The position numbers were made by a program, and so were the translations under genes. Positions 9,829 to 25,208 of a DNA stretch of 64,000 bases are shown one piece after another. Source of the stretch: an uncultured Verrucomicrobiaceae bacterium (GTDB lineage: Bacteria; Verrucomicrobiota; Verrucomicrobiia; Methylacidiphilales; CAYYVW01). Below the pieces are notes generated by a model that saw only the letters and a list, made by a program, of their open reading frames with translations, did no database searches and was not told the origin of the DNA. The stretch is taken from positions 38,974-102,973 of the forward strand of contig CAYYVW010000001.1 in the NCBI GenBank assembly GCA_964473925.1. Direction: 5' to 3'. How positions within the stretch are numbered: the first letter of the stretch is position 1; each line of letters opens with the position of its first letter.

Positions 9829-9917
9829 CGGAGCCGGGGGGATTCGAACCCCCGATACGATTTTGGTCGTATAACGGTTTAGCAAACCGTCGCCTTCAGC
9901 CACTCGGCCACAGCTCC
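9829..9917 (-). tRNA. tRNA-Ser (GCT)
   Basis: Reverse complement GGAGCTGTGGCCGAGTGGCTGAAGGCGACGGTTTGCTAAACCGTTATACGACCAAAATCGTATCGGGGGTTCGAATCCCCCCGGCTCCG; long variable arm, anticodon GCT. Confidence 0.95.
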
Positions 9918-10019
9918 TAAATATTTATAATGAATGAGTTATGCAATATTTGGCCAAAGCCTGAATTTGCACAGTTGACACTTTATTGACAGATACAGCG
10001 TTATAAGCGAATACGGGGT

Positions 10020-11147
10020 ATGCGCAAGCCGACAATCCGCATTCGGCCCTACCGTCATGCCAATAAGCCATACTTCGTTGTAGAAGGACTGCGCGTTAAT
10101 GGCAAGCGCGTTCGGAAATTCTTCCCGACGAAAACCGAAGCAGAGACATGGAAACAACTGAAGCTGGTCCAGTTGGAGAATGAGGGCAAAAGCGCCTTGG
10201 CCATGTCCGATGCGCTCCGCATCGAAGCCGTGAAGTGCGCGGGTGAATTGAAGGCCTATGGCAAAACGCTCACCGATGCGACTCGCTTCCTGATTGATTA
10301 CATCCATCGTACGGAGCGCAGTTGCACCGTTGCCGAGTTGGTGATGGAGTTCCAAACGGCCAAACGACGGGAGGGGAAATCGGATCGTTATCTGATGGAC
10401 TTGAAATCACGTCTGGGACGGTTTGCTGGCGACTTTGGGGATCGTAAGACGGCGACGGTGGAACCGCGTGAAATTGACGCGTGGCTGCAGAATTTGCCGC
10501 TGGGGCCTCAAAGCCGCAACAACTTCCGGCAGGCGATCCACGTGCTCTTCCGTTATGCGGTGACCCACGGACATGCCTCCGAGAATCCCGTCGCCAAAAC
10601 CGTCAAGGTCAAGCTGGCCGGCCCGGCGCCGAAAATTTTTACGCCGGCGCAAGTCGAAGCACTCCTCACCGCCGCGCGACAGCTCGCGCCCGAGATCCTG
10701 CCCGCGCTGGTTCTGGGCCTCTTCGCCGGATTGCGCGAAACGGAGATGGCGCGACTCGATTGGGCGGAGGTGGATCTAGAGGGGCTGCAGATTGAAGTTA
10801 AAGCTGACCCTACGGCGCGCATCGCCGGCCGCCGGATTGAAATGGAAAGCCACCTGGTAGCGTGGCTTGCGCCGCACGTGCAGGCAGGGGGCCGCGTGAT
10901 GCCGCCGGATTTCCACGCTCGGCGTGAGATGGTCTGTAAGGCCGCGCGCATTCGCTCCTGGCCCGAGGAAGTGATGCGCCACAGCTTTACCGCTCATCAC
11001 CTGGTTTACTTCCAGGCCGGGACGCGCACAGCGCGGCATCTGGGCTACGCCGACGCGTCGATGCTCGATGAGCGCTACCGCCGGCGGGTGGAGGAGCAGG
11101 AGGCGGACCGGTATTGGAATATTGCAAGTGGCGCGGGGGAGCAATGA
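10020..11147 (+). CDS. Tyrosine recombinase / site-specific integrase
   Basis: N-terminal arm-like GKRVRKFF, core-binding region, catalytic LGLFAGLRETE, MRHSF, HLGY and ERY (Tyr nucleophile). Confidence 0.9.
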   Translation: MRKPTIRIRPYRHANKPYFVVEGLRVNGKRVRKFFPTKTEAETWKQLKLVQLENEGKSALAMSDALRIEAVKCAGELKAYGKTLTDATRFLIDYIHRTERSCTVAELVMEFQTAKRREGKSDRYLMDLKSRLGRFAGDFGDRKTATVEPREIDAWLQNLPLGPQSRNNFRQAIHVLFRYAVTHGHASENPVAKTVKVKLAGPAPKIFTPAQVEALLTAARQLAPEILPALVLGLFAGLRETEMARLDWAEVDLEGLQIEVKADPTARIAGRRIEMESHLVAWLAPHVQAGGRVMPPDFHARREMVCKAARIRSWPEEVMRHSFTAHHLVYFQAGTRTARHLGYADASMLDERYRRRVEEQEADRYWNIASGAGEQ

Positions 11148-11288
11148 CGGCTTCAAGCGGTTCATCCCGCGAGCCATTGTGGAGGCGATGCGAAGGCGAG
11201 GGGGATCGTCGACGCGGCACGGGCTGGGGGCTCGATAACCAGCGCGATTGCTCTGCCTCGAATGTCGTTTTATTAGGCAGTGGTACAG

Positions 11289-11409
11289 TTTCGTCATTTC
11301 GACCGAAGCGAACGATAGTGAGCGGAGTGGAGAAATCTTGTTCCTAGTATGTACACGCTATGAACCAGATCTCTCGACTTCGCCTGCGGCTCCGCTCGAG
11401 ATGACGAAA
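11289..11409. repeat. CGTC-tagged REP-like palindromic element
   Basis: TTTCGTCATTTCGA ... TCGAGATGACGAAA terminal inverted repeat (13/14), internal GAGAAATC/GATCTCTC pair. Confidence 0.75.
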
Positions 11410-11514
11410 GTGTCCCACCACCGATTTTGGTGCATTATTTTCTTTTTCTGGCTCATCCTGCATGCATAGAGCGCTTGAAAATAAAGTGGAGACGCATTGG
11501 AAATACAACCTGAT

Positions 11515-12063
11515 ATGAAAAAGCCATTAAACATTAGAAAAATCGATGCGGCAGGGCGTCAATTGGAGACGGCAATCGAACTTTTCTTTTTAGAGAAGGA
11601 TCCAGTTTCCATTCATACGCTTGCGGCGGCTGTCTATGGAATGCTGCAAAGTTTAAACCAGCGGAAAGGAGGCAATCCCATGTTGGAAGAACGATTGATT
11701 GAGGAATATGCCATGCCTGGCAAGGAAAAGGAGCTGTGTAAAAAGTTAAACGAGGCAAAAAACTTTTTTAAGCATGCAGAGCATGATCCGGAGGGGGCCA
11801 TCGAATTCTATCCAGAATCGAACGAGTATATGCTGTGGGAAGCTGCCATTAAATATAGCGAATTAACTGGTGAGAGCACGCGCTACACTATGTGCATGAA
11901 TTTATGGTTTCACGTGCATCATGCGGATATGTTTACAGAAGAATACAAAAAGCAGTTTCCGATGGAAGCACAGCGCATGGCTCAGTCCGTGAGCCGAGTT
12001 GATTTTTTTCGGATATTTATGGCATTGGACTTGCGACACTTGCAAAAGACACGCGTGGAATGA
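11515..12063 (+). CDS. Hypothetical alpha-helical protein with KNFFKH motif
   Basis: AT-rich ORF; KIDAAGRQLETAIELFF...DPVSIHTLAAA...NEAKNFFKHAEHDP. Confidence 0.7.
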   Translation: MKKPLNIRKIDAAGRQLETAIELFFLEKDPVSIHTLAAAVYGMLQSLNQRKGGNPMLEERLIEEYAMPGKEKELCKKLNEAKNFFKHAEHDPEGAIEFYPESNEYMLWEAAIKYSELTGESTRYTMCMNLWFHVHHADMFTEEYKKQFPMEAQRMAQSVSRVDFFRIFMALDLRHLQKTRVE

Positions 12064-12124
12064 GGGTGCCTCATTGCTTTCCGAAAATCTCGCTTCCGAG
12101 GGCAATGGTGAATAATCTGCCGTC

Positions 12125-14659
12125 ATGCCGATTGCAGGTTTGATCGAGTCTGAGGCGCACGCCCGGTTAAGTGCGGAGGGCTTTAATGAGCTGCCCAGCC
12201 CGGACCGGCGGACGCCGCTGCGCATCGCGCTGGAGGTGGTGCGCGAGCCGATGCTGGCGCTTCTCTTGGGCGCGGGGTTGATTTATCTTTTGCTGGGGGA
12301 TGCGCAGGAGGCGCTGATCCTGCTGGCGTTTGCCACGCTGTCGGTGGTCATTACGGTGGTGCAGGAGGTGCGCACGGAGCGGGTTTTGGAGGCGCTGCAT
12401 GATTTGACGAGCCCGCGCGCGATGGTGATTCGCGGCGGCGTGCGCAAGCGCATTGCGGGGCGCGAGGTGGTGCGTGGCGATGTGATCGTGCTGGAGAACG
12501 GGGACCGGGTGCCGGCGGACGCGGTGCTGGTGGAGGGCCGGGATTTGCAGGCGGATGAGTCGCTGCTGACGGGCGAGTCGGTGCCGGTGCGAAAAGTTGC
12601 GTCCGCTGAGGGAGCCTCCCCGCCGGCGCGTCCGGGCGGAGATGATTTGCCGTATGTGTATTCGGGCTCATTGATCGTGCGCGGCAATGGCCTGGCCCGC
12701 GTGCTGGCGACCGGTCCGCGCAGCGAAATCGGCAAGATCGGGCAGTCGCTGGGCGCGCTGGAATTGGAACCGCCGCGGCTTCGGATCCAAACCACGCGGC
12801 TGGTGCGGCTCTGCGCCGTGGCCGGAGCCATTGTCAGCATGGTGGCGGTTGTTCTCTATGGGACGTTGCGCGGCGGGTGGCTGGACGCGGTGCTGGCGGG
12901 GATCGCGATTGGCATGTCGATGCTGCCGGAGGAATTTCCGATCGTGCTGGCTATTTTCATGGCGATGGGAGCGCTGCGAATTTCCCGCGCGCGGGTCCTG
13001 ACGCGGCGCGCCGCTTCCATCGAAACGCTGGGGTCGGCAACGGTGCTGTGCACGGACAAGACCGGCACCTTGACGGAAAATCGAATGTCGGTCGCCGAGT
13101 TGAGGCTCGGGAATGGCGAAGTCTTTCGCGCGCGCATAGCGAGCGAGGCGCTACTGCCGGAAGATTTCAGGGAACTGGCTGAATACGGCGCTCTGGCCAG
13201 CGCGCCTGAGCCGTTTGATCCGATGGAGAAAGCCTTCCATGAATTTGGGAGGGAAAGCGTGATTGAAGCAGATCGCGCGTGGAATTCGAAATGGAACCTG
13301 GTGCACACCTACGGACTTCGCCCGGAGCTATTAGCCATGACCCAGCTGTGGCGGAAGCCGGATTCGCCTGCGCTCATTGCCGCGGTCAAAGGCGCGCCCG
13401 AGGCGATTGCCGGTCTTTGCGGGATGACTCCGGAAGAGCGGGCAGCGATGCATCAATCCGTGGAAGTCATGGCAGCGGAGGGATTGCGCGTGCTGGGAAT
13501 TGCAAAAGCCACGCACACGGGGGAGCGGCCCAAGTCGCAGCGGGATTTCCAATTCGCATTTCTCGGTCTGGTCGGTTTGGCCGATCCATTGCGGCCAAGC
13601 GTGCCCGCCGCGGTGCGCGAATGCCGCTCCGCGGGCATTCGGGTCATCATGATCACTGGCGACTATCCGGCGACGGCGCAGGCCATCGCCCGCCAAGCGG
13701 GACTGGAGGTGAATGAAGTGCTCAGCGGTGACGCGATCGAACGCTTGGACGATGCGCAGCTCGCGCGCTGCGCGCGGACCGCAACGGTGTTCGCGCGCAT
13801 TATGCCTGAGCAGAAGCTGCGCATTGTGCAGGCGCTTAAGGCGGATGGCGAGATCGTCGCGATGACCGGCGACGGCGTGAATGACGCGCCGTCGCTCAAA
13901 GCCGCACACATCGGCGTGGCCATGGGTGGGCGCGGCACCGACGTGGCGCGCGAAGCCTCCGCCATTGTGCTGCTCGACGATGATTTTGGCTCCATCGTAA
14001 CCGCCATCCGGCTGGGGCGGCGCATTTACGACAATCTTCGAAAAGCGATGGGGTTTATCTTGGCTGTGCACATTCCCATCGCTGGGCTGGCGCTGCTGCC
14101 GCTGGTGTTCGGCCTGCCGATTATTTTCAGCCCCATTCATATCGCGTTTCTGGAAATGATTATTGATCCGGTGTGCTCGCTGGTCTTCGAAGCTGAGACC
14201 GACGAGGACGATGTGATGCGCCGCAAGCCCCGCGCGCCTGCCGAGCCCTTGTTCTCGCGGCATATGATTGGGTGGAGTATCGTGCAGGGCGCACTGGCGT
14301 TTGTGCTGGTCGGCGCGATTTTCCTAATCGCGTTGCAACGCGGCATGCCGGAAAACGAGGTGCGCGCGCTGACTTTCTTTTCCCTGGTGCTGTCGATCAT
14401 CAGCCTCATCTTTGTCAACCGCTCGTTCAGCGCTTCGCTCATCACCGCGTTTCGCCGTCCCAATCCGGCGCTGGGATGGATTCTATTGCTCATTGGCGGT
14501 ATTCTTGCCGTGAGCCTGCTGCTGCCTTCAGTCAGTACATTGTTTCGATTCGGACTTTTGCATGGGGATGATCTGGCCGTCACGCTGGCAGCCGGAGCTG
14601 GCGTGCTGATTGTGCTGGAATGGCTCAAGCCCCTCTGGCGAGCGCGGCTCCGAGCTTAA
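12125..14659 (+). CDS. Cation-transporting P-type ATPase (type II-like)
   Basis: LTGES, PEEFP, DKTGT phosphorylation site, MITGD, GDGVNDAP. Confidence 0.95.
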   Translation: MPIAGLIESEAHARLSAEGFNELPSPDRRTPLRIALEVVREPMLALLLGAGLIYLLLGDAQEALILLAFATLSVVITVVQEVRTERVLEALHDLTSPRAMVIRGGVRKRIAGREVVRGDVIVLENGDRVPADAVLVEGRDLQADESLLTGESVPVRKVASAEGASPPARPGGDDLPYVYSGSLIVRGNGLARVLATGPRSEIGKIGQSLGALELEPPRLRIQTTRLVRLCAVAGAIVSMVAVVLYGTLRGGWLDAVLAGIAIGMSMLPEEFPIVLAIFMAMGALRISRARVLTRRAASIETLGSATVLCTDKTGTLTENRMSVAELRLGNGEVFRARIASEALLPEDFRELAEYGALASAPEPFDPMEKAFHEFGRESVIEADRAWNSKWNLVHTYGLRPELLAMTQLWRKPDSPALIAAVKGAPEAIAGLCGMTPEERAAMHQSVEVMAAEGLRVLGIAKATHTGERPKSQRDFQFAFLGLVGLADPLRPSVPAAVRECRSAGIRVIMITGDYPATAQAIARQAGLEVNEVLSGDAIERLDDAQLARCARTATVFARIMPEQKLRIVQALKADGEIVAMTGDGVNDAPSLKAAHIGVAMGGRGTDVAREASAIVLLDDDFGSIVTAIRLGRRIYDNLRKAMGFILAVHIPIAGLALLPLVFGLPIIFSPIHIAFLEMIIDPVCSLVFEAETDEDDVMRRKPRAPAEPLFSRHMIGWSIVQGALAFVLVGAIFLIALQRGMPENEVRALTFFSLVLSIISLIFVNRSFSASLITAFRRPNPALGWILLLIGGILAVSLLLPSVSTLFRFGLLHGDDLAVTLAAGAGVLIVLEWLKPLWRARLRA

Positions 14660-14707
14660 AATCCAAAAGATTGTGCTTTTGCGGCACCTGCACAATATGG
14701 AAACGGT

Positions 14708-17107
14708 ATGAACGCGGTTTATACGCTGGATTTTTCGCAAATCACTTTAAAGGACCTTGGGAAGGTAGGCGGCAAGAACGCGTCGCTCGGCCAGCTCTTT
14801 AACGCGGTGAAGCCTAAGAGGGTCGGCGTGCTCGATGGTTTTGCGACAACTTCCGCCGCCTATTGGCGTTTATTGGAGGAAGCCGGGTTAAAAGCAAAAC
14901 TGGAAAAGATTTTCACTGGGCTCGACGCGGAAAATCTGGAAGCGCTTCAGCGGGCCGGGCAATCCGCCCGCGCCGCTGTCCTGGCGACGCCGCTGCCGGA
15001 AGATTTGCGGCAGGCGATTCTCGAAGGTTATGAGCGCTTGTGCTTTCGCGTCGGTCGGCAAGTGGAACTCGCCGTGCGCTCATCGGCGACGGCGGAAGAT
15101 TTACCGGAAGCGTCGTTTGCCGGCGCGGCGGAAACTTTCCTCAATGTGCGCGGGTCGGAGGAGCTGCTGCGCGCGGCGCACAATTGCTTCGCCTCGCTCT
15201 TTACCGATCGCGCGATCAGCTACCGGGCGCGGTTGGGTTATGATCAATTGAAGGTTGCGCTTTCGGTCGGCGTAATGCCGATGGTGCGCTCGGATCAGGC
15301 AAGTTCGGGCGTCATTTTCACACTGGACACCGAGTCGGGATTCAGGGATGTGGTAACCGTTTCCAGCATTTACGGGCTCGGCGAATTTATTGTCCAGGGC
15401 GTGGTCAGTCCCGACGAATGGACGGTCTTCAAGCCCACGCTGGCCAAAGGTTGCCGTGCGATTGTCGGCCGCCGTTTGGGTTCCAAAGAAGTGCGTCTGG
15501 TCTATGCGGGAGGAACGCGTGCGACGCGCAGCGAACCGGTGCCGGAAGAGCAGCGCGCGCGCTTTTCAATTTCTGATGACGAGGTGCTGACGCTGGCCCG
15601 GTGGGCGTGTGTCATTGAGGAGCATTATTCGGAACTGGCGGGGCATTCGCAGCCGATGGACATTGAGTGGGCCAAAGACGGTCAGACGGGCGAGCTATTT
15701 ATCGTGCAGGCGCGTCCGGAGACGGTGCATTCAGGAAAATCGCGGACTGCCGTTTCGGAAACGTACCGGCTGAAATCCAAGCCCGGCGCGCCGCTGGTGG
15801 TGGGACAGGCGGTCGGAGAAAAGATCGGCGCGGGCAAAGTACGAATCGTTTCCGACGTGGGCGCCTTGCACGCCGTTAATCCCGGCGATGTCCTGGTTGC
15901 GAAAAATACCGATCCTGATTGGGAACCGGTGATGCGCAAGGTCGCTGCGATTGTTACGGATCAAGGTGGACGCACAGCGCATGCGGCGATTGTTTCGCGG
16001 GAGTTTGGGATTCCGTGCGTGGTTGGCACCGGCAACGCGACCCAGAAGCTGCGCGACGGCCAGGAGGTGACCGTCTGCTGCGCGCAAGGAACGGAGGGAC
16101 ACATCTACGACGGAAAGCTGGATTTTGCCATCGAACGCCTCAATGCCGGGACGCTGCCGCCGACGCGTACAAACATTATGCTGACGGTCGGCGATCCGGG
16201 CCGGGCATTCCAGTTGGCTGCGATTTCCAACTCCGGCGTTGGACTAGCGCGCCTGGAGTTCATCATCACCAATCAAATTGGCATCCATCCGATGGCATTG
16301 GTTCGGTATCCGAATCTCTCAAATGCGAAAACAGCGCAGGAAATTCACACCCGGATTGGTGAAGAAGATCCACGGGAATTTTTTGTGCGCAACTTGAGCG
16401 AGGGTATCGGACGCATCGCGGCAGCGTTTTATCCCAAACCGGTGATTGTTCGCACGAGCGACTTTAAGACGAACGAATACGCCGGACTGCTGGGCGGCGG
16501 CGAATTTGAAAAGCCCGAGGAAAATCCGATGCTGGGGCTGCGCGGCGCCTCGCGCTATTACGACCCGTCGTATCAGGAGGGCTTTGCCTTAGAATGTGCG
16601 GCGCTGCTGCGTGCGCGCAAGGAGATGGGGCTTTCCAACATCAAAGTGATGATTCCCTTTTGCCGGACGGTGGATGAAGCTCGGCGCGTTATTGACGTAA
16701 TGCGGGAAAATGGATTGCGGCAGGGCGAGGATGGGCTGGAGGTTTATGCCATGTGCGAAATCCCCGCGAATGTTATCTTGGCGTCGGACTTCCTGAAGAT
16801 TTTTGACGGTTACTCCATTGGCTCCAATGACCTGACGCAGCTGACGCTGGGATTGGATCGCGACTCCGGCACCGTGGCGAAACTCTTCGATGAAAACAAC
16901 GCAGCGGTTCGATGGATGATCGCCGAGGCGATCCGCGCCGCGCATCAGGCGGGCAAGCCGATCGGGATTTGCGGTCAGGCGCCGTCCGACTTCCCGGAGT
17001 TTGCCAAGTGGCTGGTGGAACAGGGGATTGATTCGATTTCGCTCAATCCCGATTCGGCGATCAAAACAGCGAACGCCATCGCCGAGTTTGAAGCTGGGGC
17101 CTGTTAA
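14708..17107 (+). CDS. ppsA: Phosphoenolpyruvate synthase
   Basis: VGGKNASLG, AVRSSATAEDL, DIEWAKDG, GGRTAHAAIVSRE (phospho-His), ENPMLGLRG, SIGSNDLTQ. Confidence 0.96.
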   Translation: MNAVYTLDFSQITLKDLGKVGGKNASLGQLFNAVKPKRVGVLDGFATTSAAYWRLLEEAGLKAKLEKIFTGLDAENLEALQRAGQSARAAVLATPLPEDLRQAILEGYERLCFRVGRQVELAVRSSATAEDLPEASFAGAAETFLNVRGSEELLRAAHNCFASLFTDRAISYRARLGYDQLKVALSVGVMPMVRSDQASSGVIFTLDTESGFRDVVTVSSIYGLGEFIVQGVVSPDEWTVFKPTLAKGCRAIVGRRLGSKEVRLVYAGGTRATRSEPVPEEQRARFSISDDEVLTLARWACVIEEHYSELAGHSQPMDIEWAKDGQTGELFIVQARPETVHSGKSRTAVSETYRLKSKPGAPLVVGQAVGEKIGAGKVRIVSDVGALHAVNPGDVLVAKNTDPDWEPVMRKVAAIVTDQGGRTAHAAIVSREFGIPCVVGTGNATQKLRDGQEVTVCCAQGTEGHIYDGKLDFAIERLNAGTLPPTRTNIMLTVGDPGRAFQLAAISNSGVGLARLEFIITNQIGIHPMALVRYPNLSNAKTAQEIHTRIGEEDPREFFVRNLSEGIGRIAAAFYPKPVIVRTSDFKTNEYAGLLGGGEFEKPEENPMLGLRGASRYYDPSYQEGFALECAALLRARKEMGLSNIKVMIPFCRTVDEARRVIDVMRENGLRQGEDGLEVYAMCEIPANVILASDFLKIFDGYSIGSNDLTQLTLGLDRDSGTVAKLFDENNAAVRWMIAEAIRAAHQAGKPIGICGQAPSDFPEFAKWLVEQGIDSISLNPDSAIKTANAIAEFEAGAC

Positions 17108-17152: not shown

Positions 17153-17169
17153 CTAAGCAGAAAAAATAG

Positions 17170-18174
17170 TTAGGACTTGGGCGCGATCACTTGATTGACG
17201 AGCGACTGTCCCTTTTCGAAGGTCGTGATGTTTTCCAATGTCGTCTGAGCGATGTTGGTCAATGCCTCGTGCGTGAGAAACGCCTGGTGCGACGTGATGA
17301 TGACATTGGGGAACGTCAACAGCCGCGCCAGCACATCGTCCTGCAAAATTTCCCCCGAAAGGTCCTGGAAGAAAACATCGGCCTCCTCCTCGTATACGTC
17401 GAGCCCCGCCGCGCCGATATGCTGCGTCTTTAATCCTTTGAGCAATGCCCGGCTGTTGATCACCGCACCTCGGCTTGTATTGATCAGCATAACGCCAGGC
17501 TTCATTTGATCGATGGCCTTTTGATCAATCAAATGCCGTGTGGCGGGAGTCAGCGGCACGTGCAGCGAGATCACGTCCGATTCACGGAAAATTTCCTCTA
17601 GGCTCACGTATTTCAACCCGACTTCCTTCGCGAAGGCTGCATCTGGCGCAACATCTGCCGCGAGCAGTCGGCAGTCGAACCCCTGCATGATTTTGGCAAA
17701 CACCTGCCCAATCTTTCCGGTGCCGAGAATGCCGATCGTTTTGCCATGCAGGTCGAACCCTACCAATCCTTCGAGCGAAAAGTTTCCTTCACGGACACGC
17801 GCGTACGCCCGGTGAATTTTCCGGTTCAGCGCTAGAATTAGCATCACCGCATGCTCAGCAACCGCATACGGGGAATAGGCGGGAACCCGCACCACTGGCA
17901 GCCCAAGCTCGGCGGCGGCGGCCAGGTCGACATTGTTAAACCCGGCGCTGCGCAGCGCGATGAGCCGCGCGCCGTTTTTCTTTAATTCCTGGAGCACGTC
18001 ACGATTGAGCGTGTCATTGACAAAAACGCATACCGCTCCAAAGCCGTGCGCCGCTCGAGCGGTTTCGGCATTCAAGCGGCTTTCAAAGAAAACCAACTCA
18101 TGCTTGGTGGTTTTGTTTTGCTCTTCAAAAACCGCCTGCTCGAAGCGATGGGTGTCAAAGACGGCCACGTGCAT
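17170..18174 (-). CDS. ldhA: D-lactate dehydrogenase (D-2-hydroxyacid dehydrogenase family)
   Basis: ALRSAGFNNVDL, RVPAYSPYAVAEHA, GTGKIG, NTSRG, LDVYEEE, TSHQAF; ATG at 18174. Confidence 0.9.
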   Translation of the reverse strand: MHVAVFDTHRFEQAVFEEQNKTTKHELVFFESRLNAETARAAHGFGAVCVFVNDTLNRDVLQELKKNGARLIALRSAGFNNVDLAAAAELGLPVVRVPAYSPYAVAEHAVMLILALNRKIHRAYARVREGNFSLEGLVGFDLHGKTIGILGTGKIGQVFAKIMQGFDCRLLAADVAPDAAFAKEVGLKYVSLEEIFRESDVISLHVPLTPATRHLIDQKAIDQMKPGVMLINTSRGAVINSRALLKGLKTQHIGAAGLDVYEEEADVFFQDLSGEILQDDVLARLLTFPNVIITSHQAFLTHEALTNIAQTTLENITTFEKGQSLVNQVIAPKS

Positions 18175-18236
18175 AAAGAAGGCTTTAACGCTTTGGTAAT
18201 AGAATGGCAATCTCGGCTGGCGATTTTATTCACAAC

Positions 18237-18271
18237 AAAAAACGGCGTGTTTTGGCCAAGGGAGGGGTAGC
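18237..18271 (+). promoter_or_regulatory. Conserved motif upstream of hsp20 (shared with usp upstream region)
   Basis: AAAAAA-N9-TTGGCCAAG-N4-GGGTAGC, same spacing as 20594-20628. Confidence 0.55.
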
Positions 18272-18343
18272 GGGTTTTGCACCGCGCGAGCACGTTGGAA
18301 CTATCAACCACACGCCGTTTCAAATCAACCCAAGGAGAAACAC

Positions 18344-18826
18344 ATGACAAACGCTCTCGCTAAATACGCTTCACCACGAACCGCTTTGTGGAATCCTATC
18401 CAGGAAATGGAGGAGATGCAAAATCGCCTTGCTTCCTTTTTTAAGACGCCGTCGCTTCTGTCTTCCAACGGAAAAGACGAATTGATGACGCTGGCCCAGT
18501 GGGCGCCGCTAGCGGACATCTCGGAGGATGAGCGCAGCTTCACGATCAAGACCGAATTGCCGGAGATAAAAAAGGAAGACGTTAAAATCGCCGTCAAGGA
18601 TGGAACGCTTTCCATCTCAGGCGAACGCAAAATGGAAAAGGAGGAAAAGGGCAGGCGCTATCACCGGATTGAACGCGCCTACGGCAGCTTTTTGCGCAGC
18701 TTTGTTGTTCCCGAGAGCGCGAGCGCGGAGAAAACTGAAGCGGAGTTCAAGGACGGCGTGCTGACCGTGCGCCTGCCCAAAGATGAATCAGCAAAACCCA
18801 AGAGCATTACCATCAAAGTCAATTAA
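18344..18826 (+). CDS. Small heat-shock protein (Hsp20)
   Basis: WAPLADISE, ELPEIKKEDVKI, RIERAYGSFLRSF, AEFKDGVLTVRLPK; AGGAGA RBS. Confidence 0.95.
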   Translation: MTNALAKYASPRTALWNPIQEMEEMQNRLASFFKTPSLLSSNGKDELMTLAQWAPLADISEDERSFTIKTELPEIKKEDVKIAVKDGTLSISGERKMEKEEKGRRYHRIERAYGSFLRSFVVPESASAEKTEAEFKDGVLTVRLPKDESAKPKSITIKVN

Positions 18827-19045
18827 TCCATGCAACCTAAGGCCCGAAGCGCGCCGGCCCACAAACGCGGCGCCAACCGCAAAGAGCTGGCGCGCCGGGA
18901 GCGTCGGCAGAATGGTTCTCCCTATTCCTGCTCGCGGGATATTCGGGAGGACCGCTGTCAGCGCCAAACGAAATCTGCTGCTGCGGCTCGCACGCTGTCG
19001 GCATCGGCACATTAGCCGATCAAATAAACTTACAAAATTACTTCT

Positions 19046-19573
19046 ATGGAATCCTCTCTGGTTAAAGCCGTTGTTATTTATCACGACGCAGCTTCACGCG
19101 AAGCAGCGGCTTATTTATGCGCGACGCTGCGAAAGCATGCGCCACGCCAGGAGGATTTGCGCGTCTTCTGCTGCCAGGCGAATTATTTGTATCATCCGGG
19201 CATCCTGCAGGAGGCTACTATGGCGGCGGCGGCGGCGGACCTGGTGATTTTAGCCTTGCCCGCCCACGCGCTCTGCGCCCCCGTTCACCGCTGGTTATGG
19301 GACTGGTCCCATTTGCGCCAAAAGGGAAAAGTTGGTGCTCTCGTAGTGTGCTGCGATCTGATCGCCGACGAGCTGGAGGAAACGCACGAAATGCGCGAGC
19401 AGCTCAGCCGCGTTGCCCAAGACGCTCAGCTCGAAGCGTTTTATTGGGTGATGGATTCCAAACAACCGATTGAACCGCTTCTTCCCGCTCACGCGTATGA
19501 AGCGCCGGAAAAAGAAACCGTTCCCGAGCAGGCCGATCATGCGTTAAGCGCCCCGGCGCATGCTCTATGCTAA
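19046..19573 (+). CDS. Hypothetical protein (flavodoxin/receiver-like alpha/beta pattern)
   Basis: KAVVIYHDAASREAA...AAAADLVILA...WL..W...GALVV; stop overlaps convergent AraC gene. Confidence 0.65.
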   Translation: MESSLVKAVVIYHDAASREAAAYLCATLRKHAPRQEDLRVFCCQANYLYHPGILQEATMAAAAADLVILALPAHALCAPVHRWLWDWSHLRQKGKVGALVVCCDLIADELEETHEMREQLSRVAQDAQLEAFYWVMDSKQPIEPLLPAHAYEAPEKETVPEQADHALSAPAHALC

Positions 19574-20457
19574 CACGGGTTAGCAGCATGGAGCGCGTGC
19601 CGAAAGAGGGTGGGAGATTGCCCGGTGATTTTTTTAAACATGCGGTTGAAGTGATTGAGCGATTGGAATCCCACCTCAAACGCCACCTCGCTGATCCGCT
19701 TGTGTGGATTGAGTAGAAGGTTTTTGGCTTTTTCAACTCGGACGCGCGCCAGATAATCGGTGAAGTTAAGCCCCGTCGTCTTCTTGAACATCTTGCAGAA
19801 ATAGTACGTGCTGATGTGTAAGCCCTTAGCCATCGTGTCCAGGGAAATCGCTTCGCCGGATTGGTTTTCAATCATCTGCTTGGCTTTTTGGATCATTGGC
19901 GATTCGGCATTTTCATTTTCAACCATCGCCTGGTTGTAAATGACGGATAGATGCTTCGCGAAGGTCTCCAGTAGCTTGAGCATGGCCTGATACTGTTCGC
20001 GGGTGAGTGCTTGAGAATTGAAGTAGGCTTCCTCCAACTTAGCCAAATCTGTCTCCACTCCCCATTTCAAGAGCTGGCGCGTAATTTTCTGGAACTTGGC
20101 TTGCGAAGGTTTTTCCAGCGCTACTTGTCCTGTTTGCAAAAATCCGATGACGCGATCTCCCACCTGAACCGGTACCGTGCTGTCGCAAAGTCCCGCAAAA
20201 CAAGTTGCTGAGTGCGTTTTTCCCGCAATGGGATCAGAAAGCTTGTCCTGCATCTGTAGGCAGGCGGCGCAGCTCTTGCTGGATTTAGCCATCAAGACAC
20301 AAAATGGATTTTGCGTTTTCTTGCCGTGATGCGCCATATCCCATACTTGCACCGGACGCAGCGTCAAGGGCAGGTGCGTGGCGGCGCTAAATGCCTGCTC
20401 GTAATCCTGGTAGATTTTGGAGCGTGAGAGGCGCTCCACGATGGCGCGTTCAGGCAT
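19570..20457 (-). CDS. AraC family regulator with PocR-like sensor domain
   Basis: N-terminal NPFCVLM...CAAC...CFAGLCDSTVPV; C-terminal double HTH YFCKMFKK...VGFQSLNHFNRMFKK. Confidence 0.92.
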   Translation of the reverse strand: MPERAIVERLSRSKIYQDYEQAFSAATHLPLTLRPVQVWDMAHHGKKTQNPFCVLMAKSSKSCAACLQMQDKLSDPIAGKTHSATCFAGLCDSTVPVQVGDRVIGFLQTGQVALEKPSQAKFQKITRQLLKWGVETDLAKLEEAYFNSQALTREQYQAMLKLLETFAKHLSVIYNQAMVENENAESPMIQKAKQMIENQSGEAISLDTMAKGLHISTYYFCKMFKKTTGLNFTDYLARVRVEKAKNLLLNPHKRISEVAFEVGFQSLNHFNRMFKKITGQSPTLFRHALHAANPC

Positions 20458-20593
20458 GTTGAAAGCATTCGCTTGGCTAATAGAGAGGCAAGAAAATTTA
20501 ATTCACAAGTTATTCACAATATTAGTGCGGAAGGATTAACTTGTTGATCATTAAAAAGTTACGAGCATCCATTCAAACAGCAAAGCGCATGCC

Positions 20594-20628
20594 AAAAAAT
20601 GCACAATATTGGCCAAGCTGAGGGTAGC
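20594..20628 (+). promoter_or_regulatory. Conserved motif upstream of usp
   Basis: AAAAAA-N9-TTGGCCAAG-N4-GGGTAGC, matches 18237-18271. Confidence 0.55.
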
Positions 20629-20679
20629 TGATGGTTGGCGATGAGTGCAGGATGGATCAGGCACCACGCTCCTCATTCC

Positions 20680-21228
20680 ATGAAAACCTCCACATCGACT
20701 ACAAAGCAAAAAGAAGTCCGAGGCCCAAAAGGCACACCGCAATCTCGACCGCTACATGGAGTATCACCCGTCTGGAGCGTGCGGAATATTTTGGCGCCCG
20801 TCGATTTCTCGGATTGCTCGAACTTGGGACTGGCACACGCCACGGCTTTAGCCAAGGCATTGGGGTCGGAGTTGGACATTCTTCATGTTTTTACGCCCGT
20901 CGTTCATCCTCCGGCCATGGATGCCATGGTGCTTATGGATTATCTTCCGACCGAGGAAAAGGCGCGAGAGCGTTTACAAGAGTTGCGGGATGAATATTGC
21001 AAGGGCATTCCGACGAAAACGCATTTAAGGAAGGCGGGCTGGCAACACGGCGGCGTAATCGAGGTGCTTCTGGATCATGCTCAAAGCTCGGGAGCGGATT
21101 TGATTGTGATCGCTGCGCATGGTTACGGAAAATTGGAGCGCTTTCTGATGGGCAGCACGACGGAAAAATTGGTGCGTCACGCCTCCTGCCCGGTTTTGGT
21201 CATTCGAGAAAAAACAAGAAATCAGTAA
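20680..21228 (+). CDS. Universal stress protein (UspA family)
   Basis: ILAPVDFS, ADLIVIAAHG, FLMGSTTEKLVRHASCPVLV. Confidence 0.92.
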   Translation: MKTSTSTTKQKEVRGPKGTPQSRPLHGVSPVWSVRNILAPVDFSDCSNLGLAHATALAKALGSELDILHVFTPVVHPPAMDAMVLMDYLPTEEKARERLQELRDEYCKGIPTKTHLRKAGWQHGGVIEVLLDHAQSSGADLIVIAAHGYGKLERFLMGSTTEKLVRHASCPVLVIREKTRNQ

Positions 21229-21230
21229 TT

Positions 21231-21683
21231 ATGAATAATCCAAATTACATCGACGCATTTGAAAATTCCTTACAGCAGGCCAATCGTTGGCTGGATTTAC
21301 TGGCGGAAAAATATGACCTGGCCAGCCGGCAGCAGGCGTACAACATTCTCCGAACGGTTTTACAGGCATTACGTGAGCGGCTGCCAGATGCTGGTATCGC
21401 CGTGCTTTCTGCGCAGCTTCCCCTGATCCTGCGGGGGGTTTTCATGGAAGGCTGGACGCCGGGCAAGCCGGAAAAGCTGCATGTGGATGAGTTCTGCGAA
21501 ACAGTAGCCCGGAACATTAAGATTGATCGCTATTTTGATGGGTTGATTGCAACCCAAGCCGTGCTGCAATTGCTCGATCAAGAACTGGCCCCCGGCACGA
21601 TCGAGAAATTGCTTCATCTTCTGCCGTCGGATTTTCGGAGCAAGCTCACCCCCTGGCACACAACCCACGTAACCACCCGTTAA
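21231..21683 (+). CDS. DUF2267 family protein
   Basis: LQQANRWL..L...AYNILRTVLQALRERL...LSAQLPLILRGVFMEGW...LP. Confidence 0.85.
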   Translation: MNNPNYIDAFENSLQQANRWLDLLAEKYDLASRQQAYNILRTVLQALRERLPDAGIAVLSAQLPLILRGVFMEGWTPGKPEKLHVDEFCETVARNIKIDRYFDGLIATQAVLQLLDQELAPGTIEKLLHLLPSDFRSKLTPWHTTHVTTR

Positions 21684-21694
21684 TCCTCTCATTG

Positions 21695-22396
21695 ATGAAA
21701 TCGTTTCCATTCTTTGTAACATTCCTTCTGCTGACCTTGGCGACCATTGCGTTGGGTCATGCCTCCGACATGTGCCAGACCGTGAAAAAAGCGACCGCCA
21801 TTCTTGAAGCACGGCAGGAATCTGACAATCGCATCTCCTTCGCTGGGCTTTGCAATGCGAAGGGTGTGGCGATCATCGAGATGACACGGGCGGGATTGGT
21901 GGTCGGTGGCACCCGTGGAGAAGGCATTGTGGTCCTGCGCATGCCTCGATGGGCAAAGGAGGGTCGCTGGTCGGCTCCGATTCCTATCCGAATCACTGGC
22001 GCAAGCCTCGGCGCCCAGATTGGCAAATCTAAGACTCGTGCCATCATCTTGCTTAATACTGACCGCGCGGTGCGTATTTTTACAACCAACAACAAGGTGG
22101 TATGGAGCGCAGCGGCCAGCAGAACTTCCGGCGCCGATACCGCCACGCGGCAAAGAATGTCAGCTTTATCCAGTCAGGACATTACGGTTTACCGCGACAC
22201 TCATGGGTATTACCGCGGCGCGACCTTGGGTGGCAGCACCATTCATTTCCAAAAGAACAAGTTGTGTGACGCCTACGGCCGGGATGTGGACTTGCAAGAT
22301 GTTCGCATCGGGAGGGTGGCGCCTCAGGATTACTGCAAGCGGCTGATCTGGCTTTTGGAAGGCGATCCGCACTTTGCCAAGCGGCCACGCAATTGA
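21695..22396 (+). CDS. Lipid-binding SYLF/Ysc84 domain protein with signal peptide
   Basis: AKGVAII...AGLVVGGTRGEG...WSAP...GASLGAQIG...VY....GYYRGATLGG. Confidence 0.8.
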   Translation: MKSFPFFVTFLLLTLATIALGHASDMCQTVKKATAILEARQESDNRISFAGLCNAKGVAIIEMTRAGLVVGGTRGEGIVVLRMPRWAKEGRWSAPIPIRITGASLGAQIGKSKTRAIILLNTDRAVRIFTTNNKVVWSAAASRTSGADTATRQRMSALSSQDITVYRDTHGYYRGATLGGSTIHFQKNKLCDAYGRDVDLQDVRIGRVAPQDYCKRLIWLLEGDPHFAKRPRN

Positions 22397-22572
22397 CCAA
22401 ATCGTGCGTATTCTGATCGACACGCTTGAATGGGAGGGCGAGTTGAAAATTCCGGCAAACGACCAAGACATGCAGCGGCGCGGCTGCTTTAGTGGTGGGA
22501 AGGAAGACCCAATCTTAGGGAATTGTCGCAGAAGTAGCGATTTTACAGTCTTACCTCATAGTTATCGTCCGG

Positions 22573-22911
22573 TTATCGCAACTTCTGCGCGAGAGTGCGG
22601 GCGTCTTGCTGGATGCGGGCGCACATCAGCTCGCAAAGTTGGATCAGTCGAAAGTCGCAAATCTCATAGCGAACAAAATTGCCGTCACGCTTGCCTCGAA
22701 CAAAGCGGGCTTGTTGCAATAGACTTAAATGCTTGGAAACGTTGCCTTGCTGCATTTTGGTGGCGTTCACCAGTTCCGTGACGGTCATCGGTCCGTCCAT
22801 GAGCGCGCGCAGCAGCATCAGGCGGGAGGGCTCGGCAAGCATTGCAAAGAGCCGCGCGGATTCCTCCAGCTGCGCGTCGGACATTTTCCTTTTCTTTTTA
22901 ATTTGTTTCAT
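22573..22911 (-). CDS. ArsR/SmtB family transcriptional regulator
   Basis: FAMLAEPSRLMLL...TVTELV...QGNVSKHL..L...R.G..VRY; C-terminal LCELMC. Confidence 0.92.
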   Translation of the reverse strand: MKQIKKKRKMSDAQLEESARLFAMLAEPSRLMLLRALMDGPMTVTELVNATKMQQGNVSKHLSLLQQARFVRGKRDGNFVRYEICDFRLIQLCELMCARIQQDARTLAQKLR

Positions 22912-22960
22912 TCAAATATTGCTTTATAGTGATATAGAAATATTCCATACAAATACTTTT

Positions 22961-23527
22961 ATGACAACTTCAAATGACATTCCAGCCACGGTATCCCCCA
23001 GCCAGGCGGCGGGGATGCAAGCCTCCGCCTTATTTCTCGACGTCCGCACGCCCGGCGAGTTTGAGCAGGCGCATATTGAAGGCGCAGTGCTCCATCCGCT
23101 CTCGGAACTTAATCCGGAGGCAGTCCGTCAAAAAGCATCGGGCAAATCGGCCTGCGTCGTGATTTGCCGAACGGGGAACCGGGCGCGGCAGGCGGCGCGG
23201 CGGCTGACCGGGGTGGGCCATCAAAATGTGCGCGTCTTGGAAGGCGGGTTGCAAGCCTGGCAAGACGCCGGGTTGCCGGTGATGCTTGGGCGTAAAAGCA
23301 TCTCTCTGGAGCGGCAAGTGCGGATCGCGGCGGGAACGCTCGTGGTTATCGGCGCGGCGCTGGGATATTTTGTGCACCCGGCTTGGATGGCGCTGTCGGC
23401 CTTCGTTGGTGCCGGCTTGGTTTTCGCGGGAATCACTGACACCTGCGGAATGGGGATGCTTTTGGCGCGGATGCCGTGGAATAATCGCCGCAGTTGCGCG
23501 ACGGGCGCTTGTTCCTCCAAACCTTAA
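22961..23527 (+). CDS. Rhodanese domain + DUF2892 membrane protein (YgaP-like)
   Basis: LDVRTPGEF..AHIEG, active-site ICRTGNRA, SLERQVRIAAG...GITDTCGMG..LARMPWN; ATG at 22961. Confidence 0.92.
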   Translation: MTTSNDIPATVSPSQAAGMQASALFLDVRTPGEFEQAHIEGAVLHPLSELNPEAVRQKASGKSACVVICRTGNRARQAARRLTGVGHQNVRVLEGGLQAWQDAGLPVMLGRKSISLERQVRIAAGTLVVIGAALGYFVHPAWMALSAFVGAGLVFAGITDTCGMGMLLARMPWNNRRSCATGACSSKP

Positions 23528-23544
23528 CCTCAACGAATCGACCT

Positions 23545-24981
23545 ATGCTTTTACGACAAATCTTCGATCCCTATCTGGCGCAATACGCGTACCTCGTTGG
23601 TTGCCAGCGAACGGGCGAGGCGCTGATGATTGACCCACTGCGTGACATTGATCAATACGAGCGCTTGGTCCACGACAACGGCTTGCGAATCACCGCGGTG
23701 GCTGAAACGCATATTCATGCCGATTTTGTCAGCGGCGCGTCGGAGTTTGCTCAAAAGCCAAGTATTCATCTGTATCTGTCGGCGGAAGGAGGCCCGGATT
23801 GGCAATACCGCTGGCCGGGAGCGCGCCCAAACGTTCATTTGTTAAAGGATGGACAAGTGTTTCATGTCGGCAAAATTCGTGTTGAAGCCATCGCCACTCC
23901 CGGCCATACGCCGGAACACTTGAGTTATCTCATCACGGATGAAGGCGGCGGCGCGGATCAGCCAATTGCTTTGGCGACTGGGGACTTTCTCTTTGTCGGC
24001 GACGTGGGTCGCCCGGACTTGCTGGAGTCTGCGGCGGGCATTGCGGGAATGATGGAGCCATCGGCGCGGACGCTGCAGGCGTCCCTGGCGAAGAAATTGC
24101 AACCGCTCGCGGACTGGCTGCAAATTCTTCCGGCGCATGGCGCGGGAAGCGCGTGTGGCAAGGCGCTGGGGGCAGTTCCGACCAGCACGCTGGGATATGA
24201 GCGGCGTTTCAATCACGCGCTCAAACTGGCGTCAGAAGATGGCGCGGCTTTTATTAAAGACATCCTCTCCGGGCAGCCGGAGCCGCCGCTTTATTTTGCA
24301 ACAATGAAGCGGGTCAACCGTGATGGCATTCGCGTGACCGGCGGCGTGCCGCAAGCAACTCATCTTTCGGCCAAAGAATTTGAAAAATTGGCGGCGGACC
24401 CCAAAACGATGGTGCTCGATGCGCGAATGGATCGGGCGGATTTTGACGCCCGGCATGTGCCGCGCTCCATTCACGCGCCTCTGCGTTCTTTCTTTTTTAC
24501 GACGGCGGCCGGCTCTTATGCGGGAGAAAATGATCCGATTCTCCTGGTTCTCGAAAATCAGGAAGATGCCGATTTGGCCTTGCGCCAATTGTACCGCATC
24601 GGCCTGGATGAGGTGTGCGGATGGATCACGCTCGAAGAAGCGCAAAAGGCTGAGTTGCTCACCGGCAAGCTCGAGCGCATCGAGTTTTATCAGTTCGATG
24701 CATCCAAGGCGCAGGTGGAAGGAGTTATTCTGGATGTGCGCACGAGCAAGGAATTTGAAGACGGTCATCTGCAAGGCGCGCTTTCCATTCCTTACACGCG
24801 GCTGAAAGCTCGCTTAAGTGAAGCGCCGCAGGGCAAGCGCTTATTTGTGCATTGCGGTTCGGGCAGACGGGCTTCGTTGGCGGCGTCGTTTCTCAAAGCC
24901 CGTGGCTATGACGCGGTGCATGTGGATGGCGTGTGCAAGGACTGCCAGCGGATCGCGCACGAACGCGGAATAGCTCATTAA
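23545..24981 (+). CDS. MBL-fold persulfide dioxygenase fused to rhodanese domains (CstB/Blh-like)
   Basis: ETHIHADFVSG, TPGHTPEH, TGDFLFVGDVGRPDL, PAHGAGSACGK; C-terminal LDVR...VHCGSGRRAS. Confidence 0.92.
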   Translation: MLLRQIFDPYLAQYAYLVGCQRTGEALMIDPLRDIDQYERLVHDNGLRITAVAETHIHADFVSGASEFAQKPSIHLYLSAEGGPDWQYRWPGARPNVHLLKDGQVFHVGKIRVEAIATPGHTPEHLSYLITDEGGGADQPIALATGDFLFVGDVGRPDLLESAAGIAGMMEPSARTLQASLAKKLQPLADWLQILPAHGAGSACGKALGAVPTSTLGYERRFNHALKLASEDGAAFIKDILSGQPEPPLYFATMKRVNRDGIRVTGGVPQATHLSAKEFEKLAADPKTMVLDARMDRADFDARHVPRSIHAPLRSFFFTTAAGSYAGENDPILLVLENQEDADLALRQLYRIGLDEVCGWITLEEAQKAELLTGKLERIEFYQFDASKAQVEGVILDVRTSKEFEDGHLQGALSIPYTRLKARLSEAPQGKRLFVHCGSGRRASLAASFLKARGYDAVHVDGVCKDCQRIAHERGIAH

Positions 24982-25168
24982 TGAGCCTTGTCATACTCTA
25001 TGGTGGGAGTCGCGCTATGGATGCTGAATTAAACAGCTGAGTTGATAAGTAAGCTATTGGATTTATTGACAGCTAGTTGCCTGGATGAATAGTAAAACGT
25101 GCGCTTTTGTGCTTTTTGGTTCGTACATGTTCTCTCGTAAGTTGCTGATTACGAGGTAGACATCTGGA

Positions 25169-25208
25169 TTAGTAAGCCTTCGCCTTCAGCCGCTCGGCCA
25201 CAGCTCCT
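25169..25208 (-). pseudogene. Displaced, degenerate 5' half of tRNA-Ser (att junction)
   Basis: TTAGTAAGCCTTCGCCTTCAGCCGCTCGGCCACAGCTCCT, 36/40 identical to 9879-9918. Confidence 0.85.

Follow-up and report, generated by a model that had tools for sequence, protein, structure and literature searches.

When an integrase and its cargo lie upstream of an intact tRNA gene, and a copy of the 5' half of that tRNA lies at their other end, one may ask where the gene was cut and which DNA now supplies its 5' half and promoter. The question was raised by a 64,000-nucleotide stretch, hereafter the window, of contig CAYYVW010000001.1 from an uncultured bacterium. We consider it likely that an island of about 15.3 kb (9918-25165) was put in by recombination in the anticodon loop, with the 5' part of the gene and the promoter supplied by the element, and that this island is old, most likely immobile and probably lies beside an earlier related element. 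The features of the locus that bear on recombination are listed below.

9829-9917, minus strand: intact tRNA-Ser(GCT) (ARAGORN; Rfam RF00005 at 59.8 bits)
9876-9917, minus strand: island-proximal att core, tRNA nt 1-42 (repeat D4; 42/42 versus 37/42 in the scan; nt 1 to 40-43 block in relatives)
9918-10019, no strand: tRNA-integrase spacer (by-eye alignment of 34 spacers)
10020-11147, plus strand: tyrosine integrase, 375 aa, of a Verrucomicrobial clade (homologs with PF00589, alignment)
25100-25165, no strand: distal island arm (compared with the far ends of the G041, G042 and G043 islands)
25166-25207, minus strand: displaced, decayed tRNA 5' fragment, nt 1-42 (direct repeat and contig scan)
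25219-25305, plus strand: integrase N-terminus relic, profile positions 16-44 (family-profile hmmsearch in six frames; DNA repeat D5)

Ends of the island

The tRNA-Ser(GCT) gene, which does not encode CCA, is single-copy: ARAGORN finds one among 46 tRNAs in the 96%-complete assembly, which answers a point raised by the first-pass annotation, whether the genome has another. Direct repeat D4 pairs positions 9876-9918 with 25166-25208 (38/43 identical); in tRNA terms it corresponds to nt 1-42 (37/42 identical at 25166-25207) and spans the acceptor stem, the D arm and the anticodon arm. The duplication had been described as 40 nt long (36/40) and as the tRNA 5' half, from acceptor stem to anticodon loop; the arms covered were right, and the count becomes 37/42. 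The displaced fragment lies on the same strand as the intact gene, upstream in the tRNA's own orientation, and differs from it at nt 16, 29, 32, 35 and 40, with an anticodon that reads ACT. A 27-nt core of the repeat has two matches in the window (0.00 expected from shuffled sequences), and a scan of the 368-kb contig for a third tRNA-Ser copy, at a threshold of at least 26/42 matches, returned none, so that no such fragment marks the far end of an older element on this contig.

Independent Logan assemblies of another sample match the window at 100% over the left junction (5446-12586) and over the right junction (23012-26659). SRR13608702 and SRR13608705 are the samples with assemblies in which the locus is found at 100% identity. 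As both junctions are reproduced independently, the layout is not an artefact of binning or assembly, and the integrase-borne island 5' of the tRNA that had first been proposed stands, with its repeat, its integrase at 10020-11147 and its two junctions. Compared with the configuration defined by Islander, the locus has a full-length tDNA at one end (tRNA-Ser(GCT), 9829-9917), a terminal co-oriented 5' fragment on the upstream side (nt 1-42 at 25166-25207) and, inside a length of 15.3 kb (Islander range 2-200 kb), a tyrosine integrase (10020-11147). Composition was rejected as a boundary marker: its signal is mild, and the left flank is atypical as well.

Identity blocks in related islands and the integrase family

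The displaced fragment likewise consists of tRNA nt 1 to 40-43 in seven related Opitutales/Verrucomicrobiota genomes, and several of these fragments are identical to the genome's own tRNA. This is the case in G003 (nt 1-42) and in G041, G042 and G043 (nt 1-43); the fragment of G046 (nt 1-42) has one mismatch and those of G020 and G027 stop at nt 40-42. The same-strand fragment lies upstream of the intact gene by 5.3 kb in G043, 6.9 kb in G042 and 18.8 kb in G046. The flanks of the relatives' fragments diverge directly at -1 and past nt 40-43. These limits point to a crossover at the anticodon loop, with the 5' half and the promoter coming from the island, as the first-pass annotation had proposed on both counts. 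The blocks place the island in the anticodon-loop sublocation class: in eight islands, including that of the window, the 5' blocks stop at nt 40-43, and classical ones, whether they share the tRNA or the integrase family, begin at nt 28-32. The latter are a 39-kb island at tRNA-Ser(GCT) with a 3' fragment from nt 28 to the 3' end (G016) and, within the same integrase family, a 22-kb island at tRNA-Leu(TAG) with a fragment from about nt 32 to the end (G052).

Integration would then proceed as follows. The tyrosine integrase would recombine within the anticodon loop of tRNA-Ser(GCT), with an attP of the family type whose integrase-proximal arm would carry tRNA nt 1 to about 43 and the upstream promoter. 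A whole tRNA gene would be rebuilt from an island-derived 5' part and a chromosomal 3' part, and the former 5' part would be displaced 15 kb upstream. Judging from the limits of the identity blocks, which also suggest where the exact crossover bases may lie (for the family, a predicted overlap at loop nt 32-38), nt 1 to about 35 of the present tRNA would be island-supplied. The tRNA promoter would then be located in the spacer (9918-10019); a search upstream of the tRNA for a strict sigma-70 consensus promoter found none.

We then looked at the integrase family, which numbers 467 loci. Among 80 loci retrieved, 78 had a usable integrase, giving a sample of 79 with that of the window. A divergent tRNA (5' side) was present for 34 of the 79 integrases, the window's included, and involved nine tRNA species; it lay 38-303 nt upstream of the integrase, at 80-141 nt in 32 of the 34 cases. 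The tRNA was co-directional in 22/79. Its orientation tracks the integrase tree, on which three changes suffice. The 5'-side layout is thus a habit of a large Verrucomicrobial integrase clade, at no fewer than nine tRNA species.

By-eye alignment of the 34 spacers revealed two TTGACA boxes conserved family-wide, at 9975-9980 and 9986-9991 in the window, 11 bp apart within TTGACActttaTTGACAGATAC. They probably serve the integrase as arm-type sites, or else form the int promoter, and the motif is likewise present in 3'-side members of the family. An eroded GTTCGC-like pair lies closer to the integrase ATG. In the distal arm, GTTCGT (25119-25124) and GTTCTC (25129-25134), 10 bp apart, fit the family's paired GCGAAC/GTTCGC arm motif, so that family arm motifs are found at both island ends.

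These data also bear on the possibility that there is no island at all, and that a local duplication of the tRNA 5' half, or a resemblance due to chance, lies beside an unrelated recombinase gene. A strong compositional break is indeed absent at 25.2 kb and no empty site is known among the genomes searched. However, no chance match of the repeat core is expected, seven other genomes show the same limits (nt 1 to 40-43), 33 homologous integrases are divergent beside tRNA genes and the arm motifs occur at both ends; we thus hold this explanation to be highly improbable.

The 5'-side layout is not new in kind, as Islander already lists it. Its algorithm explicitly allows for a 5' fragment on the upstream side of the tDNA, and its 2015 Table 1 counts 159 islands out of 3919 with a 5' tDNA fragment and 3760 with a 3' fragment (PMC4383910). 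Most tRNA-targeting elements duplicate the 3' end, and the 5' layout is a minority type with precedents. The 5'-fragment islands of Islander share with that of the window the intact tDNA at one end, the co-oriented 5' fragment upstream, the tyrosine integrase within and the 2-200 kb length; the window island differs in being decayed and in residing in an uncultured Verrucomicrobiota (Opitutales-like) genome. Islander gives a count, whereas the clade pattern (34 members, nine tRNA species) is absent from PMC4383910.

Classical integration at the anticodon loop ('A' site) uses the same symmetric anticodon stem-loop sublocation, the two kinds of block overlapping from nt 28 to 43, and the classical G052 island has an integrase of the same family with integrase-proximal TTGACA boxes. 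In contrast, the tRNA faces the opposite way with respect to the att arms: classical integration exchanges the 3' part and leaves the host promoter in place, while in the window type, its mirror image, it is the promoter and 5' part that are exchanged. Both orientations thus occur in one integrase family, at the same symmetric core. The dusA-specific integrases, as described in PMC4482086, also target the 5' end of a gene, which the element restores; there the target is protein-coding and the integrase belongs to a different family.

Island finders and annotators that assume 3' fragments alone would overlook the 5' class, which appears common in Verrucomicrobiota (34/79 sampled). With their clean members of 5-7 kb, G043 and G042 offer a tractable system for studying what sets the direction in which an element integrates at a palindromic core, which could be useful for integrase engineering.

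Decay of the element and probable traces of an earlier one

The integrase frame begins at 103 nt from the 5' end of the tRNA and reads away from that gene. Full-length homology to PF00589 proteins places it among the tyrosine recombinases (281 homologs; the best, PF00589-bearing, at E=1.7e-115 with 50% identity over 98% coverage), although its own PF00589 score, 19.5 bits, is under the 27.1 cutoff. In the alignment, R239, R320 and Y353 are retained, while the conserved Lys (K266) is replaced by Ala and the conserved His (H343) by Tyr, so that the complete catalytic set (R...K...(H)xxR...H/W...Y) is absent. At columns with a conservation of 90% or more, the protein deviates 33 times, Lys and His included, compared with 0-19 in other family members, and its tree branch measures 0.67 for a median of 0.23. 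In addition, the HTH_17 (Xis-like) and AAA_25 backbone genes found in the islands of fresh relatives have no homolog anywhere in the genome. The decay of the fragment, of the arm sites and of the integrase, together with the loss of these backbone genes, indicates that the island is most likely old and no longer mobile.

Could the integrase nevertheless tolerate its odd active site and a mismatched fragment, and excise the island on rare occasions? Its 375-aa frame is intact with R239, R320 and Y353 kept, and the TTGACA arm boxes are conserved. In one sample the Logan contig breaks within the tRNA (9872-9897), which could mean heterogeneity at the att site; we set this signal aside, as the 26-nt overlap is not k-1 and the junction is continuous in the other sample. 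Against mobility stand the replaced Lys and His and the 33 deviations, a displaced core mismatched in the anticodon loop and in both stem arms, and an island that has no excisionase-like gene. Excision would also leave the sole tRNA-Ser(GCT) with two broken anticodon-stem pairs and possibly an ACT anticodon, a faulty tRNA that the first-pass annotation had rightly foreseen. Residual mobility is thus unlikely. The same annotation suggested that the mutated fragment could lock the island in; it is better read as neutral decay in an element already immobile, whose integrase has lost Lys and His and which has no excisionase-like or AAA_25 gene.

A broader and rather doubtful extension is that the 5'-side takeover is a clade-wide strategy and not an accident of orientation, which would become addiction-like once the displaced fragment decays. 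By putting its own promoter and 5' half in place, the element would gain control over the expression of a tRNA gene that is essential and often present once, and with a decayed fragment the host would be unable to shed the island's integrase-proximal end. Such a mechanism would account for the integrase relics that persist by tRNA-Ser(GCT) here and in G023. In any case, the locus illustrates in concrete terms that an essential tRNA gene may end up relying on the DNA of a mobile element.

Just past the displaced fragment, the family profile detected what remains of a second integrase, 29 codons (25219-25305). Its score (E=0.0017, 14 bits) is weak alone, and it is the second-best match in the window. 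This relic is placed and oriented relative to the fragment as the resident integrase is relative to the intact gene, at a distance shorter by about 135 nt. It suggests the trace of an earlier tandem element, beside which the new element of the same family probably landed; the flank beyond 25208 is thus probably an older element and not the ancestral chromosome. The stretch from 25.3 kb on, with czcCBA and the genes that follow, may be part of such an older island.

It also opens the possibility of a composite, in which fragment and integrase come from separate events through deletion or recombination in a tandem array, the cargo not having been brought by the resident integrase. The position of the relic directly past the fragment, its shortened distance, which implies deletions, and the tandem arrays at tDNAs reported by Islander (PMC4383910) are in line with it. 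However, the contig holds one fragment and one full integrase only, and the paired motif of the family is found in the arm beside the fragment, where the partner end of this integrase family should have it. We therefore give the composite a minor share of the probability, greater than that of residual mobility, and prefer a single island beside an older relative.

If the flank past 25208 is an older element, a real island could still defeat a simple prediction of the empty site. The search brought up no close relative free of the island, and none from the same family, genus or species: each of the 40 nearest genomes is from another family of the order and lacks synteny at the tRNA, a single-protein scan of genome contigs for a close relative gave no match, and metagenome contigs searched with the neighbouring DUF4385 protein reached 70% identity at best, with the tRNA in synteny in none of them. 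A single metagenome locus had tRNA-Ser(GCT) nearby (L198) and proved unrelated. A second island at tRNA-Arg(CCT) (1441-1514) was likewise discarded: the downstream frame encodes MsrB-MsrA and not an integrase, and there is no tRNA-Arg fragment.

Cargo

The region 9918-25165, which is putative acquired DNA, comprises the following genes beside the integrase; all but the first are cargo.

11497-12063, plus strand: hypothetical protein, 127-188 aa by start choice (no Pfam/NCBIfam match; 127 aa in Logan contigs)
12125-14659, plus strand: type II/III P-type cation ATPase, Ca/Mg/H-like (Pfam E1-E2_ATPase, Cation_ATPase_C, Hydrolase; NCBIfam)
14708-17107, plus strand: phosphoenolpyruvate synthase, PpsA (NCBIfam NF005057, 1095 bits)
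17170-18210, minus strand: D-2-hydroxyacid (D-lactate-type) dehydrogenase (Pfam 2-Hacid_dh_C; NCBIfam)
18344-18826, plus strand: Hsp20 small heat-shock protein (Pfam HSP20, E=2e-25)
19570-20457, minus strand: AraC-family regulator with a PocR sensor domain (Pfam PocR and HTH_18)
20635-21683, plus strand: universal stress protein, then DUF2267 protein (Pfam Usp; Pfam DUF2267)
21692-22396, plus strand: Ysc84/SYLF-domain protein (Pfam Ysc84)
22679-24981, plus strand: rhodanese-YgaP membrane protein, then metallo-beta-lactamase-fold and rhodanese protein (Pfam; NCBIfam)

The island holds the genome's sole copy of the genes for the P-type ATPase, PpsA (no second copy in a paralog scan), the D-2-hydroxyacid dehydrogenase, Hsp20, Usp, the AraC/PocR regulator and the sulfur-transferase proteins. 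It thus reads as a fixed, decaying relic that carries the only copy of its stress and central-metabolism genes. The ATPase is at most 40% identical to proteins of order-level relatives. The listed Usp and DUF2267 frames overlap, so that their true starts are later. The metallo-beta-lactamase-fold and rhodanese protein is persulfide-dioxygenase-like with a likely start at 23545, and a 478-aa product within 22679-24981 was called identically in an independent contig.

The island beside tRNA-Ser(GCT) and its junctions

The first-pass annotation had placed an island on the 5' side of tRNA-Ser(GCT), and the tRNA gene, the repeat, the integrase and the reproduced junctions established that this island is real and was correctly described. 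The features concerned are the following.

9829-9917, minus strand: intact tRNA-Ser(GCT) gene (ARAGORN; Rfam 59.8 bits)
9876-9918 and 25166-25208: direct repeat, 38/43 identical
9975-9980 and 9986-9991: two TTGACA boxes 11 bp apart in the tRNA-integrase spacer, followed by GATAC
10020-11147: integrase ORF (375 aa), directed away from the tRNA, start 103 nt from the tRNA 5' end
25119-25124 and 25129-25134: GTTCGT and GTTCTC, a recognisable motif pair by the distal island end
25219-25305: integrase relic

A repeat finder located the repeat, and shuffles give an expectation of 0.00 occurrences for its 27-nt core. When the 368-kb contig was scanned without gaps using tRNA nt 1-42, the intact gene scored 42/42 and the second copy 37/42, and no further copy reached at least 26/42. 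Read in the direction of the gene, this second copy is found upstream and spans the acceptor stem, D arm and anticodon arm; the duplicated segment is indeed the tRNA 5' half, as had been proposed. It differs at nt 16, 29, 32, 35 and 40, the nt 35 change turning the anticodon GCT into ACT, and similarity is lost entirely past nt 42. As to whether this is the only tRNA-Ser(GCT), which the first-pass annotation had marked for checking, it is the single one among the 46 tRNAs of the assembly (1.97 Mb, 48 contigs, 96% complete).

Independent Logan assemblies of SRR13608702 are 100% identical to the window over 5446-12586 and 23012-26659, and both island junctions are thus reproduced outside the MAG. 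The SRR13608705 assembly breaks within the tRNA, where one contig stops at 9897 and another begins at 9872, overlapping by 26 nt in the anticodon arm; low coverage or att-site heterogeneity could be the cause; the junction at 9872-9897 is unbroken in SRR13608702. The gene has no encoded 3' CCA (9829-9835); most tRNAs beside related islands encode one.

Orientation within the integrase family and the site of strand exchange

The statement that most tRNA-targeting elements duplicate the 3' end was correct: Table 1 of Islander counts 3' fragments for 3760 islands and 5' fragments for 159, its configuration filter admitting 5' fragments upstream of the tDNA (PMC4383910). The 5'-side layout is thus a catalogued minority type (about 4%) and not unprecedented, and the window's island is a decayed member of this known class.

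The integrase ORF has 281 homologs, mostly from Opitutaceae/Verrucomicrobiota MAGs, the best being about 50% identical across 98% of the length, with PF00589. Scanning one genome per species with a family profile yielded 467 relatives, and we examined the best 80 of these loci. In 33 of these 80 the tRNA was on the other strand and preceded the integrase start by 38-303 nt (80-141 nt in 31 of the 33), which is the window's 5'-side layout; the tRNA species were Ser-TGA, Ser-GCT, Leu-CAA, Leu-TAA, Arg-TCT, Thr-CGT, Met-CAT, Cys-GCA and Phe-GAA. The classical 3'-side layout, with a co-directional tRNA 110-237 nt upstream, was found in 22 of the 80. On a maximum-likelihood tree of 79 integrases, orientation was strongly clustered and three state changes suffice. 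One major clade (n=30) held only 3'-side or tRNA-less loci, and the other (n=49) held all 34 5'-side loci, the window's included, together with a well-supported 3'-side subclade of six and one more 3'-side locus. The window's integrase belongs to this latter, 5'-side, clade and has a long branch (0.67; median 0.23). A limited literature search found no description of a large clade habitually using the 5' side over many tRNA species beside classical-orientation sisters, and on that basis we make no claim of novelty; it is this clade-level pattern, and not the window's copy, that is moderately interesting.

Displaced tRNA 5' fragments in related genomes (genome; tRNA; fragment; position relative to the tRNA)
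G003 (same order); Ser(GCT); nt 1-42, identical to own tRNA; other contig
G020; Ser(GCT); ending at nt 40; about 1 kb upstream
G027; Ser(GCT); ending at nt 42
G043; Ser(TGA); nt 1-43, identical to own tRNA; 5.3 kb upstream, same strand
G041; Ser(TGA); nt 1-43, identical to own tRNA; other contig
G042; Ser(TGA); nt 1-43, identical to own tRNA; 6.9 kb upstream, same strand
G046; Ser(TGA); nt 1-42, one mismatch; 18.8 kb upstream, same strand

The two tRNA copies of G003 differ in sequence upstream of +1, and at the Ser(TGA) islands (G043, G041, G042 and G046) flank divergence starts at -1. The classical counterparts also use the anticodon loop: a 39-kb island at tRNA-Ser(GCT) in G016 has a fragment spanning nt 28 to the 3' end, and a 22-kb island at tRNA-Leu(TAG) in G052, with an integrase of the window's family, has one spanning about nt 32 to the end. 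The core of a tyrosine recombinase site consists of two inverted binding sites around a 7-nt overlap. Since the 5'-type and 3'-type identity blocks share only the anticodon stem-loop, we infer that strand exchange would occur within the anticodon loop, the 'A' site of the Islander paper (PMC4383910). The attP of the 5'-side clade would then carry the first 43 or so tRNA nucleotides. Island DNA directly borders the block, whose first base is +1, and we therefore also infer that the working tRNA-Ser(GCT) promoter must be in island DNA; the tRNA-integrase spacer contains no strict sigma-70 consensus. The block limits in relatives thus support the earlier proposal of an anticodon-loop crossover and an island-supplied 5' half and promoter, a mechanism that we consider essentially right.

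Almost every 5'-side spacer keeps the TTGACA boxes, as does the 3'-side subclade. In the closest subclade, a GTTCGC pair sits by the integrase start and its inverted counterpart, a GCGAAC pair, at the other island end. In the window the integrase-proximal pair is eroded, and the far-end pair supports 25165 as a genuine end of an island of this integrase family. These motifs also show a single arm architecture, relative to the integrase gene, for both orientations, which differ in the tRNA half that sits between core and integrase.

Two small islands (L106, G043:C19:61800-67769, 5.3 kb; L107, G042:C7:5800-13500, 6.9 kb) have perfect 43-nt tRNA-Ser(TGA) 5' repeats; they appear to have integrated recently and are well suited to experimental work. 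At L023 (G020:C2:24000-43900), the intact tRNA-Ser(GCT) and its 5' fragment are only about 1 kb apart (8517-9578) and are also alike over about 45 nt upstream of +1; this pair is either a very small element or an island remnant after internal deletion.

A probable earlier element beyond the displaced fragment

When the window was scanned in six frames with the family profile, the second-best match after the integrase itself was the relic at 25219-25305 (E=0.0017, profile positions 16-44), which is also DNA repeat D5. Relative to the fragment it has the same strand and side as the live integrase relative to the intact tRNA, but is about 135 nt closer. Since in the 5'-side geometry the sequence beyond the fragment is the pre-integration upstream region of the tRNA, the relic implies a putative earlier element of the same integrase family, later truncated. 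Its far end was not found among tRNA fragments of at least 26/42 on the 368-kb contig. A similar relic in G023 (L204, G023:C154, 19380-19612) retains integrase residues 1-44 (64% identity) and 142-163 beside the 5' end of tRNA-Ser(GCT), with no far-end tRNA fragment within 19.7 kb, and we regard it as another decayed 5'-side island.

Straight after the window's relic, 25351-30996 encodes a small ORF (97-114 aa) and then a czcCBA-type RND efflux operon (OEP, an unassigned 284-aa protein, AcrB-family); these genes may be cargo of the older element. The left flank (4000-12000) has a GC content of 0.45-0.52 (genome, 0.572) and a tetranucleotide deviation in the contig's top 10%. It carries TMEM175-like, AdoMetDC-like, DUF2000, PhzF and DUF4385 genes, and no integrase or tRNA 3' fragment.

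Decay of the island and its cargo

Several lines of sequence evidence indicate that the window's island is decayed. Over the 42 nt of its displaced fragment there are 5 mismatches, among them one loop position and two positions on the 5' side of the stem, compared with 0-1 in fresh islands. The integrase deviates at 33 columns conserved at 90% or more in the family (0-19 in the other 26 aligned members), and its PF00589 score is under threshold. R239, R320 and Y353 are retained; the conserved Lys and His are changed (K266A, or Arg if there is a one-residue shift, and H343Y). The backbone common to fresh 5-7 kb islands consists of integrase, HTH_17 (excisionase-like) protein and AAA_25 helicase-like protein, the last two with 78% and 61% identity between G043 and G042, and the window's genome contains no homologs of these two proteins. 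The integrase ORF is intact, which would fit residual activity of the island, but we consider such activity improbable. Recombining the present ends is predicted to disrupt two of the five anticodon-stem pairs in the rebuilt, sole tRNA-Ser(GCT). The lock-in put forward in the first-pass annotation is thus a real consequence of the mutated fragment; we read it, however, as a by-product of neutral decay once the element had stopped moving and not as a device.

The cargo comprises a type II/III P-type ATPase, PEP synthase, D-2-hydroxyacid dehydrogenase, Hsp20, an AraC/PocR regulator, Usp, DUF2267, Ysc84/SYLF and rhodanese-YgaP proteins, a metallo-beta-lactamase-fold + rhodanese protein and several hypothetical proteins. 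No close second copies of these genes were found in the rest of the genome, where a Ysc84/SYLF homolog (51% identity) came nearest as a partial match, and no P-type ATPase ortholog above 40% identity was found among 40 order-level relatives. Within this comparison to distant, order-level relatives only, both results fit acquisition followed by domestication. Logan contigs from two samples (L205 and L206) end exactly at 12586, within the P-type ATPase gene, which suggests a strain-level branch or variant within the island. A probable bidirectional terminator, a perfect inverted repeat of 19 bp around a 19-nt loop (17097-17153), lies where the ppsA and 2-hydroxyacid dehydrogenase genes converge.
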